This document shows, one piece after another, positions 8,978 to 11,602 of a stretch of DNA of 45,508 nt. Below the pieces are notes generated by a model. The model did no database searches, had not been told where the DNA came from, and was given only the letters and a program-made list of their open reading frames with translations. The position numbers were made by a program, and so were the translations under genes. Each line of letters begins with the position of its first letter. Positions within the stretch are counted from its first letter, which is position 1. This stretch comes from Patescibacteria group bacterium (lineage in GTDB: Bacteria; Patescibacteriota; Doudnabacteria; UBA920; VMFF01): NCBI GenBank assembly GCA_038065615.1, contig JBBTQQ010000001.1:25577-71084 (forward strand). The letters are read 5' to 3'.

Positions 8978-10018
8978 CTAGACGTGCACATTTGCAGAGA
9001 TCAGAAGATTTTGTAGTTGTTTTTTGATCTTCCTTGATTTGGCATGCTTTAACATTCCTAGATACGAGGGAATGCTCTTACTTAAAAATTCTTGGTTTCC
9101 CATTTTAACTTTTAATTTTCTAAACATCCTTTTCTTTGTCTTAATTCTAATAACGGTATGATACGGACGTATTACATAACCTAAAAAATCGATTCCTTGT
9201 GAATACTTCCTAAATATTATTTTTCTTGGATGCAGAATGAGTTTAAGCTTTTTGTCTAAAAAGACTTGAATTCTAGGGACCAATGTTTCTAAAGACTCTT
9301 TGTCTTTAGCTAAGAATATAAAATCATCGCAATATCTTAGATAGTACAGCTCTTTCAATTGATGTTTTGCGAACTGATCTAGTTCGTTCAGATATACATT
9401 AGCGAATAGCTGGCTGGTCACATTTCCCAACGGTATTGCTTTTCCCTTCTGTTTTTCAAAACTGTACAAAATTACCTTGAGCAAACAAACCACATCCTTA
9501 TCCTGAATCTTGTTTTCCAGTAATTCCAAAAACAGGCCATGGTCTATTGAATCAAAGAATTTACTAATATCGCATTTAAGCGACCAAATGTTCTTCTTGT
9601 TATTCTCACTTACTTTAACCGCAAACTGCTCAAGCCTCTTTACAGCCCTATGAATACCTTTTTTGTTTCTACAAGAATACGAATCATGGATAAATGAAAT
9701 ATCAAAGACAGGATACAATATTCTAAAAATTGCATGGTGCAATACCCTATCCCTGACTGACGCCTTATGTATATGCCTGACCTTTGGATCAGTTACATAA
9801 AATGGGATATACTCTGAATGCTCGTATGTCTTACTTTTGAGTTCGTTGTGCAATTTAAACAGGTTGTCTTCCAGATTGTATTCAAAGCTCTGGACATCTG
9901 GTTTGTTACGTTTTCCTCTTTTAAACTCACGCCAGGCCAAAAATAGATTTTCTAAACTAATTATTTTCTCAAAGCTTCCATGACCCAAAATATTTCTATT
10001 AACACGCCCCCCCCCCAT
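8978..10018 (-). CDS. DGR reverse transcriptase
   Basis: 346 aa. DPKVRHI, RDRVLHHA, DSYSCR..KG, KCDISKFFDSIDH, DGR-type IPLGNVTSQLFANVYL, catalytic RYCDD, GIDFLGY. No maturase or endonuclease extension. Confidence 0.95.
   Translation of the reverse strand: MGGGRVNRNILGHGSFEKIISLENLFLAWREFKRGKRNKPDVQSFEYNLEDNLFKLHNELKSKTYEHSEYIPFYVTDPKVRHIHKASVRDRVLHHAIFRILYPVFDISFIHDSYSCRNKKGIHRAVKRLEQFAVKVSENNKKNIWSLKCDISKFFDSIDHGLFLELLENKIQDKDVVCLLKVILYSFEKQKGKAIPLGNVTSQLFANVYLNELDQFAKHQLKELYYLRYCDDFIFLAKDKESLETLVPRIQVFLDKKLKLILHPRKIIFRKYSQGIDFLGYVIRPYHTVIRIKTKKRMFRKLKVKMGNQEFLSKSIPSYLGMLKHAKSRKIKKQLQNLLISANVHV
10007..10016. repeat. C10/G10 homopolymer at the RT/avd start junction
   Basis: Ten consecutive C on +, read as ATG GGG GGG GGG on -. 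Confidence 0.95.
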
Positions 10019-10358
10019 GCTCGGTTCTGCTCCCGTTGTTCATAAAGTTACAGAGTTCTACAAATTAATATATTTACTAAGGTCCAAAATTCCGAAAAAA
10101 GACCGTTTTGGAATTTATCTTAAAATTGAAAATAACTGCCTTGAACTAATTGATTTATTGATTACCGCATCTTTGGAATCTAAGACGAACAAACTTCCGA
10201 CATTAAATACGGCAAGAACAAAAACTGAGGTATTAAAAAGACTGATTAGACTGAGCAGCGAATTAAAAATAATTGATAACAAGAAATATATTGGTCTAGA
10301 AGCTGAACTGCAAGAAATATCCAAAATGATTAATGGTTGGATAAAGTATGTAAAATAG
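10017..10358 (+). CDS. avd: Avd-like four-helix-bundle accessory variability determinant
   Basis: 113 aa, basic, IPKKDRFGI...LKRLIRL...EISKMINGWIK pattern, located between TR and RT. Confidence 0.88.
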   Translation: MLGSAPVVHKVTEFYKLIYLLRSKIPKKDRFGIYLKIENNCLELIDLLITASLESKTNKLPTLNTARTKTEVLKRLIRLSSELKIIDNKKYIGLEAELQEISKMINGWIKYVK

Positions 10359-10365
10359 CACGATC

Positions 10366-10393
10366 AAGTCCCGAGTGACCGGGACTTTTTGTT
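10366..10393 (+). terminator. Terminator for avd; also a hairpin just 3' of TR on the - strand
   Basis: aagtcccg-agtgac-cgggactt followed by T-tract on + only. Confidence 0.75.
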
Positions 10394-10400
10394 GGATGCT

Positions 10401-10517
10401 ACCTCACGGCAACGCAGATTGTCGTTCTCATTGTCGGGATTGTACCAGTTGACGTTGAGCTTGTCAGTGTCGTTCCAGTAGACGTTCGGGACATTGCCAT
10501 CAGAGTTGCGAGAACCG
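10401..10517 (-). ncRNA. DGR template repeat (TR); IMH*-like extension to ~10393
   Basis: 117-bp ungapped match to 10825-10941. It has 32 adenines on the - strand and 10 AAY codons in the target frame. Confidence 0.95.
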
Positions 10518-10790: not shown

Positions 10791-11546
10791 TTACACGGCA
10801 GCTTTCGCAGCCGCAGTGGAAACCACCTCACGGCAACGCAGATCGTCGAACTCACCGCCGGGACTGTACCAGCGGACGCTGAGCCTGCCAGCGTCGCCCC
10901 AGTCGACGATCGGGACACTGCCACCAGAGTGGCGAGAACCGAAGCAGAGTGTAACGTTCACGATGTCGAGATGCTCACCCGTTTCCAGGTAGTACTTCAA
11001 CTCGTGAAGCAAACGCTCCAGAAGGGTCTCGCCCTTCACTCCGATGTGACTGAGTGCGTTCGCGGACTTGTTCTTCCACTGCTCGTCCGCTTCGACTACA
11101 TCTCGGACCCAGATGGCGTAGCTGCCGTGACTCGCATCACGATCGTTGGTCGGGACTGCTTCGTCGAGGTTCTGATCCGTGTACTTCCATGCGCCAAACT
11201 TCTCGGCGCACTTATCGAAAACCTGCTGGATCGTGACGCCTTGGGCGACAACGATCAGCCTGTCGAAGCCTTCGCGGCGCTCTGGGATCTGGAGACTTGC
11301 GAAGCTGAGCTCGAGACCGAAGTGAACGCGGTAGAAGCTCTGCCACTCAACCAACTTCTGGTTGGTGGTCCACTCCATCGAGTACTTCCCGAACGTGGTT
11401 CGGATGTCTGCGATGAAGTCGCCCTTGTGCGCTGTGATGTTCTTCGCGTCGGCGAACGACAACGGCGGCAACGCTTGAACAAGCGTCGTGATGATGTCAG
11501 TCCTTTGACCATCGGTCATGGGACGGACTGCCTCATGTCTTGGCAT
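10791..11546 (-). CDS. DGR target protein with C-terminal variable region (probable CLec-like fold), no signal peptide
   Basis: VR at the 3' end. Start at ATG 11546 has a GAGGAGG SD (ORF track starts at GTG 11600). GC-rich, ~57% in a sampled line. Confidence 0.92.
   Translation of the reverse strand: MPRHEAVRPMTDGQRTDIITTLVQALPPLSFADAKNITAHKGDFIADIRTTFGKYSMEWTTNQKLVEWQSFYRVHFGLELSFASLQIPERREGFDRLIVVAQGVTIQQVFDKCAEKFGAWKYTDQNLDEAVPTNDRDASHGSYAIWVRDVVEADEQWKNKSANALSHIGVKGETLLERLLHELKYYLETGEHLDIVNVTLCFGSRHSGGSVPIVDWGDAGRLSVRWYSPGGEFDDLRCREVVSTAAAKAAV
10796..10813 (-). promoter_or_regulatory. DGR target-recognition hairpin/cruciform with GAAA loop
   Basis: CGGCTGC-GAAA-GCTGCCG (one T:T mismatch), ~3 nt past the end of TR/VR similarity. 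Confidence 0.7.
10825..10941 (-). repeat. DGR variable repeat (VR)
   Basis: 20 mismatches to TR: 14 A>G, 3 A>T, 2 A>C and 1 T>G (- strand). Confidence 0.95.
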
Positions 11547-11602
11547 GAGATATTCCTCCTCTACGAGTGAAATTGTCCGAAACATCTCTGTCGGATCCAC
11601 AG

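Follow-up and report, generated by a model that had tools for sequence, protein, structure and literature searches.

A length-unstable simple repeat between avd and RT as a candidate reading-frame switch in Patescibacteria diversity-generating retroelements

A 45,508-nucleotide stretch of the genome of a Patescibacteria group bacterium (assembly GCA_038065615.1, contig JBBTQQ010000001.1), referred to here as the window, carries a complete diversity-generating retroelement (DGR). Its genes for the DGR reverse transcriptase (RT) and for the accessory variability determinant (avd) diverge from a run of ten identical bases, which is C10 on the plus strand and G10 on the minus strand. Runs or other simple repeats stand at the same junction in the large majority of related DGRs, and run length differs between relatives that are otherwise nearly identical. 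On the evidence of reading frames, codon choice and stop counts, we hold with fair confidence that this repeat, which is conserved in Patescibacteria DGRs and unstable in length, most likely acts as a switch of reading frame for both RT and Avd. We infer that translation would start at the ATGs of two short upstream leader open reading frames (ORFs) and that switching would alter the activity of the DGR.

In the mechanism that we envisage, a hypermutable simple repeat would be kept between the divergent avd and RT genes in those Patescibacteria DGRs in which avd is inverted. The short leader ORF of each gene would start within its partner, at the ATG formed by the reverse complement of a conserved His codon (CAT), and would then enter the repeat, the length of which would set whether the leader is in frame with the body of its gene. 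Slippage during replication, without MutS and MutL, would change that length, and Avd, RT and with them targeted hypermutation would be toggled on and off in a heritable and stochastic manner. Some leakiness may come in addition from slippage of RNA polymerase or ribosomes on the run. A more far-reaching proposal, which we put forward only tentatively, is that a single repeat gates two divergent, antisense-overlapping leaders, such that Avd plus RT, and targeted hypermutation itself, may be a coupled, heritable and stochastic trait across a large clade of ultra-small bacteria that lack mismatch repair.

The junction run and its computed reading frames

The run lies where the divergent avd and RT genes meet (Table 1) and reads, on the plus strand, aacacg CCCCCCCCCC atgctcgg. 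It is the only G/C run of at least 7 bases in the window, the next longest being 6, and is far beyond chance. An initial annotation, made from the letters of the window, had pointed to a CATG palindrome shared by the two start codons beside the run, and this is indeed present: the avd ATG at 10017–10019 (plus strand) overlaps the RT ATG at 10018–10016 (minus strand), which is followed by nine more G, and the RT ORF accordingly begins MGGGRVNRNILGHGSFEK. Each gene also has a leader further upstream. The avd leader reads MTQNISINTPPP from ATG 9980, is open up to the run and, with C10, ends at TAA 10043–10045; the RT leader, which begins at ATG 10043–10041 on the minus strand, meets a stop after 14 codons at G10.

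Reading frames were computed in silico for run lengths n = 8–13. At n = 9 or 12, RT is in frame from the leader ATG 10043 and Avd is fused to the leader that starts at 9980, with its own ATG also present. At n = 10 (the assembled length) or 13, RT is in frame from ATG 10018 of the CATG and Avd starts from its own ATG 10017, and at n = 8 or 11 RT is left without any in-frame ATG and Avd again starts from 10017. These frames agree with the earlier proposal that the ORF from ATG 9980 stops at 10045 with C10 and joins avd in frame with C9 or C12, and also with its caveat that the avd ATG does not depend on the tract, as this codon can be used at every computed length. The annotation had further held that RT is in frame only with G7, G10 or G13. 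ATG 10018 is in frame at n = 10 or 13 as claimed, but the restriction to these registers is wrong, since ATG 10043–10041 serves G9 and G12. Similarly, one slippage event had been expected to switch RT off while changing the N-terminus of Avd. The wider idea, a slippage-prone junction run that acts on both genes, is supported by the relatives, but the detail is not: after a −1 slip to G9, RT would stay readable from the conserved upstream ATG 10043, which then comes into frame, and the N-termini of both proteins would change, and an in-frame RT ATG is lost only at G8 and G11, the latter being a +1 slip. By these predicted frames the switch is partly bypassed in this window by local start codons.

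A second caveat of the annotation, that RT could start at a TTG downstream of the run, stands as well. Such a codon is found at 9988–9986, and the nearest ortholog (G001, 73% identity) keeps the matching TTG. The same ortholog has C8 followed by GAC instead of the avd ATG, with a leader that is off by one base. An in-frame start that abuts the run on the avd side was seen, among the related loci, only in this window (ATG) and in L031 (GTG).

Table 1. Features of the DGR in the window, with coordinates in window positions
Feature	Coordinates	Strand	Basis
Slippery homopolymer C10/G10	10007..10016		Sequence; repeat at the same spot in relatives
DGR reverse transcriptase (RT), 346 aa from ATG 10018–10016	8978..10018	-	ORF; Pfam RVT_1 at 1.2e-21
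avd (accessory variability determinant), 113 aa from its own ATG, which abuts the run	10017..10358	+	ORF; Pfam bAvd at 7.2e-17
Conserved avd leader ORF, ATG 9980–9982 the reverse complement of the RT His13 codon CAT	9980..10045	+	Sequence
Conserved RT leader ORF, ATG 10043–10041 the reverse complement of the Avd His9 codon CAT	9999..10043	-	Sequence
TTG, 12 codons before the ENL motif; possible run-independent RT start	9986..9988	-	Sequence; kept in G001
Template repeat (TR)	10393..10517	-	Repeat comparison with VR
Variable repeat (VR), 3' end of the target gene	10817..10941	-	Repeat comparison with TR
DGR target gene, 269 aa, GC 57%, without Pfam match	10791..11600	-	ORF; Pfam

Conservation, length and leaders of the repeat in relatives

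Relatives were gathered from genomes and from metagenomes. A search of genome contigs with an alignment of both RTs of this genome, which carries a second DGR described below, gave 583 relatives confirmed by tblastn; the best 80 were analysed, nearly all of them labelled as metagenome-assembled genomes of Patescibacteria or the candidate phyla radiation (CPR). A scan of metagenomes with the window RT gave 63 loci, of which 58 were examined for the run. In 66 of the 80 genome loci a G run of at least 6 bases is found no more than 90 nt from the RT N-terminus, and 46 of the 58 metagenome loci have one at the RT 5' end; a near-identical copy of the window locus was not found in the metagenome scan, in which the best match was 68% identical. 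An avd match was obtained in 76 of 82 sequences, and in 75 of these 76 loci avd is divergent from RT.

Across the whole set the RT N-terminus was matched in 140 of 145 sequences, 131 of which had enough clean flank to judge the junction. There, 112 loci carry a G run of 6–13 bases, five a dinucleotide repeat and 14 no repeat, and the tract that the annotation had suggested looking for in homologs is thus present, as a run or as another simple repeat, in 117 of 131. The five dinucleotide repeats, (GA)6, (AG)16, (GT)10, (CT)10 and (CT)6, occupy the same spot as the G runs, most of which are 9, 10 or 11 bases long, without restriction to multiples of three. Because dinucleotides substitute for the run and lengths do not follow multiples of three, the conserved feature is, by this comparison, a slippery repeat and not the poly-G sequence as such. 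The repeat-less loci that were inspected (for example L022, L043, L046, L055, L132 and L144) have an ordinary RT ATG 13–15 codons before the ENL motif, and in L043 the start codons of avd and RT stand back to back.

A few loci have junctions of their own kind. Six metagenome loci that form an identical cluster (L092 and L094–L098) carry an interrupted run, G3AG7, and have no avd match upstream of RT; L116, which is related to this cluster, has an intact G9 and likewise no avd match. These seven may be locked or rearranged variants. The contig of L105 ends where the repeat would be, in a stretch of more than 50 C, which is probably an assembly artefact caused by the homopolymer.

One hundred representatives, one per cluster and run length, were split into group 1 (65 loci, including the window) and group 2 (35 loci, including the second DGR of the genome). 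Group-1 RTs have no ATG or GTG where their relatives start, and 57 of 65 are without a canonical start between the run and the FEKIISLENL region; in these, RT would therefore have to be read through the run as Gly codons. Initiation of both proteins downstream of the tract, which the annotation had named as an observation that would speak against its proposal, is thus not what the start codons of most group-1 RTs suggest. Group-2 RTs have a conserved ATG 13–21 nt after the run (MKIQL.H). Avd is without a canonical in-frame start on either side of the run in 19 of 61 group-1 loci and 16 of 35 group-2 loci (35 of 96 in total). A count of any upstream in-frame ATG, GTG or TTG (33 of 65 in group 1) was set aside as too lenient, given that chance starts are common.

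The group-2 ATG raises the possibility that the repeat has a non-coding role in the 5' region common to both genes, for example as a promoter spacer, as an untranslated-region or ribosome-binding element, or as part of a DGR-RNA structure, and that the real starts lie after it. This would agree with the 15 of 35 group-2 loci in which the RT ATG and the avd start codon both follow the run, and with the start codons that both window genes have at the edge of the run. It is harder to reconcile with the occurrence of repeats of unrelated sequence at the same spot, with the 57 group-1 RTs that have no start after the run, and with leader ORFs that are kept open and leader ATGs that are kept (below), the two leader features being ones that would not be expected from a purely non-coding role. 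No promoter-like hexamer pair spans the run, and 4 promoter-like sites were counted compared with 3.2 in shuffled sequences, a scan that is too weak to settle the promoter-spacer version. Shine–Dalgarno use in this genome is also weak (21% of 439 ORFs, compared with a background of 9%), and a role of poly-G as a Shine–Dalgarno sequence was rejected as unlikely in view of that low use and of the 13–21 nt between run and ATG in group 2. On balance a non-coding role appears quite improbable, and a frame switch remains our preferred reading.

The leaders themselves provide evidence for that switch. The leader ATG upstream of either gene is conserved and, read in reverse complement, forms a His codon that is in frame in the partner gene. 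The N-terminal His codon of RT, opposite the avd leader ATG, is CAT in 80 of 81 loci, and the His codon of the Avd VHK motif, opposite the RT leader ATG, is CAT in 34 of 34. As a baseline, CAT makes up 63% of the His codons in RT bodies (842/1338), and nearby two-fold codons (NAY/TTY) end in T in 78% and 66% of cases; the excess of CAT has p = 5e-4 and p = 9e-7, values that are uncorrected for shared ancestry. Between its ATG and the run, the avd-sense leader has no stop in 676 codons, compared with 81 in 657 and 102 in 602 in the other two frames. The RT-sense leader, which is open in 33 of 34 loci, has 1 stop in 325 codons, compared with 20 in 303 and 33 in 299, and codons that create a stop on the opposite strand (TTA, CTA and TCA) account for 5.1% of the codons in RT bodies. 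Judged by this codon choice and these stop counts, the leaders carry signatures of selection. Since each leader ATG pairs with a codon that is itself in frame in the opposite gene, the run lengths that bring one leader into frame also bring in the other. The agreement in register of the two leaders in 27 of 27 loci was rejected as evidence, being a geometric identity, and is kept here as a consequence of the design.

The length of the run is unstable between close relatives. When the 112 run-bearing loci were clustered by 500 nt of flank at an identity of at least 95%, 95 clusters were obtained, nine of them with at least two members. In five of these nine the run differs in length despite flanks that are 99.6–100% identical: L004 has G10 and L117 and L118 have G9; L084 has G10 and L087 has G8; L103 has G9 and L128 has G10; L106 has G9 and L111 and L112 have G8; and L107 has G10 and L108, L109 and L110 have G9. 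Length is constant in three clusters of two members and in the six-member cluster with the interrupted run. The variation in tract length that the annotation had proposed to seek in related genomes is therefore seen between near-identical loci.

In 80 loci the register between leader and gene body was compared across the run: 13 are in frame, 37 are one base too long and 30 are two bases too long. This in-frame proportion falls short of the third that would be expected were frame irrelevant (p = 8e-4). This preponderance of out-of-frame loci is also what would be expected of programmed recoding, in which slippage of RNA polymerase or of the ribosome would give a steady low level of in-frame Avd and RT, and the DGR would be throttled and not toggled. 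Recoding would explain how 67 of 80 loci can be out of frame while VRs are diversified (shown for the VR at the window locus), and the conservation of the leaders fits it equally well; moreover, runs of 9–13 identical bases are long enough for polymerase slippage. Programmed frameshifts have a shift of fixed direction and size, however, and none is found among the 80 loci, as the three classes above show. Differences in length at the DNA level separate loci that are otherwise identical, and dinucleotide repeats replace the run at five loci, neither of which suggests a recoding signal. We therefore regard recoding as unlikely. Two features associated with contingency loci are found, in that the uninterrupted C10 is far above the genome background and is placed where its length alters the frame computed in silico.

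Activity of the retroelement and the genome around it

On the minus strand, the order of the DGR is target gene with VR, TR, avd (in antisense) and RT. TR and VR form a 125-nt repeat with 82% identity, in which 21 of 23 mismatches are at TR adenines (minus strand), and the distance from VR to the run is ~800–930 nt. With avd inverted relative to TR and RT and placed between them, the element fits the CPR DGR architecture called B3. The RT protein contains LGNVTSQ, which we take to fit the GxxxSQ motif of DGR RTs.

Comparison with population relatives indicates that this DGR is at work. Genome G003 is 99.4% identical to the window over 3767 nt, and of the 23 differences 13 are in VR, all at TR-adenine sites, with four more being TR adenines themselves. 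In X9, a public run from an independent study with the same variants as G003, all 11 VR differences are at TR-adenine sites, of which the 125-nt repeat has 35. Since the VR differences of both fall without exception at such sites, the DGR is, by this population comparison, active in nature, with ongoing mutagenic retrohoming. The TR itself also varies: at positions 10450, 10455, 10461 and 10464, minus-strand TR adenines are replaced by G or C in G003 and X9, which is unexpected of a template that is supposed to stay invariant.

Two further properties of the DGR region may be recorded. Its GC content is uneven, at 57% in the target gene and 52% in TR compared with 35% in RT, 31% in avd and 38.5% in the whole window. 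Directly after the avd stop, at 10366–10387, there is a GC-rich 8-bp hairpin followed by a T run that resembles a terminator on the plus strand; viewed on the minus strand, the same hairpin is directly 3' of TR, where a DGR RNA structure could be.

Length at the exact window locus was followed in Logan contigs, which are consensus pieces, of 18 public runs. The locus has C10 in X1 and X4, which may be the source samples, and in G003; in X9 it has C11 in one 174-nt contig of depth 2.4. Contig breaks near the homopolymer in X9 and X10 (the latter ends at 9996 and resumes at 10148) were not counted as evidence.

These observations bear on the question of whether the run in this particular copy is a relic, the CATG starts having freed both genes and left the DGR effectively constitutive. 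It is true that an avd start directly after the run is as rare as noted above, the nearest ortholog having GAC, that RT is in frame in two of three registers, and that C10 is shared by X1, X4 and G003 as VR is actively diversified. A relic should nevertheless decay or become interrupted, as in the G3AG7 cluster, and here an uninterrupted C10 is retained. In addition, G8 and G11 would still abolish every in-frame RT ATG, and C11 does occur in the one contig from X9. The probability that the run is a relic therefore seems to us very small.

The same genome provides a second instance of the arrangement. On the same contig, a complete DGR of the same layout (G000:C1:121907-124500, L001 2405-4998) has its RT on the minus strand, a divergent avd and a C9 at the same RT/avd junction; its TR is at L001 3819-3952 and its VR at L001 4295-4428, and its target gene encodes 235 aa. 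Downstream of the run, the avd of this second DGR lacks a canonical start, and its leader ATG, which is out of register here, would come into frame at C10. The RTs of the two DGRs are 50% identical and the Avd proteins 36%, and on this comparison the two are old paralogs in which the run has been kept at the same place.

Mismatch repair appears to be missing from this organism, as MutS_V and MutL (DNA_mis_repair) domains were not found in the genome, which is scored as 100% complete by markers. This fits a high instability of repeats. The 724,694-base genome holds six G/C runs of at least 7 bases, of lengths 7, 8, 9, 9, 10 and 11, and all six read as C on the plus strand of their own contigs. 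Apart from the two DGR runs, these are a C11 at C9:35645-35655, between two paralogous genes with secreted-looking products; a C9 at C13:21438-21446, ~120 nt upstream of a cold-shock-like gene; a C8 at C4:25460-25467, in frame within a subtilase-like gene; and a C7 at C6:13045-13051. These four may be additional contingency loci.

Several points weigh against a frame switch. Most assemblies are in the register that would be off, although VRs are diversified. In group 2, 15 of 35 loci have both starts after the run, and frame control is therefore not the whole story there. The codon and stop statistics of the leaders are uncorrected for shared ancestry, and Illumina consensus errors at G9–11 could be the cause of some of the length differences. 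At the exact window locus the length polymorphism is weakly shown, coming from contig consensus, and the run may be dispensable in this copy given that avd has its own ATG and that the RT TTG is kept in G001.

Known systems and consequences for Patescibacteria

In Campylobacter jejuni, Neisseria and Haemophilus, poly-G/C contingency loci cause translational phase variation by slipped-strand mispairing. The junction run resembles these loci in several respects: a G/C run of 7–13 bases lies in the 5' part of an ORF, frame depends on its length modulo three, relatives that are nearly identical differ in that length, and mismatch repair appears to be missing from the host. It differs in what would be gated, which here is the enzymes of a retroelement for targeted hypermutation and in those bacteria surface or restriction genes. 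A further difference is that the one repeat is shared by a pair of divergent leader ORFs that overlap in antisense. Divergent genes separated by one simple repeat are likewise found at hifA/hifB of Haemophilus influenzae, in which a (TA)n repeat between the fimbrial genes controls both simultaneously through promoter spacing. The evidence from the DGR points instead to reading frame, as the leaders are open and no promoter pair spans the run.

The DGR of Bordetella phage BPP-1 (mtd-avd-TR-brt) offers another comparison. Both elements combine RT and Avd, show adenine-specific changes between TR and VR, and have VR at the 3' end of the target gene. In BPP-1, avd is on the same strand and upstream of TR, and its genes are not known to be gated by a repeat; the RT of the window is only a distant relative of the BPP-1 RT.

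Architecture B3 makes up 90% of the CPR set in the available text of Wu et al. (Wu et al. 2018, PMC5758913), and the window DGR shares its order of target gene with VR, TR, inverted avd and RT. Like B3 and like DGR clade 2 of Roux et al. (Roux et al. 2021, PMC8144416), it is cellular and comes from groundwater Patescibacteria. Neither a repeat at the junction nor leader ORFs are mentioned in the available parts of the two papers. In the accessible text of PMC5758913 the words 'homopolymer' and 'start codon' do not occur and the single 'slippage' refers to RT slippage at AAC repeats, and in that of PMC8144416 'homopolymer', 'slippage' and 'orientation' are absent. In PMC11661182, 'homopolymer' and 'frameshift' are absent. 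Contingency loci have been described in coliphages T2 and T4 (PMC12633550), where, as is proposed here, hypermutable repeats serve for bet-hedging within mobile or accessory genetic systems; unlike in those phage loci, the repeat here is in a retroelement. The initial annotation had feared that poly-G tracts of CPR DGRs might already have been published, a concern that the literature searches did not bear out: no published homopolymer or simple repeat gating DGR genes surfaced among the papers listed by full-text searches, the scope of which did not extend to Paul et al. 2017 or to the supplements of the DGR surveys. What would be new here is the application of contingency-locus logic to a DGR.

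To our knowledge, DGRs are the only natural systems that hypermutate proteins in a targeted way. If the frame switch is real, Patescibacteria, a major uncultured part of bacterial diversity, would have a simple and heritable regulator of mutagenesis. The frequency with which gene callers label avd and RT as 'broken' or start-less in these genomes would also be explained. The repeat would then be a second-order contingency locus, through which evolvability itself would be subject to bet-hedging.

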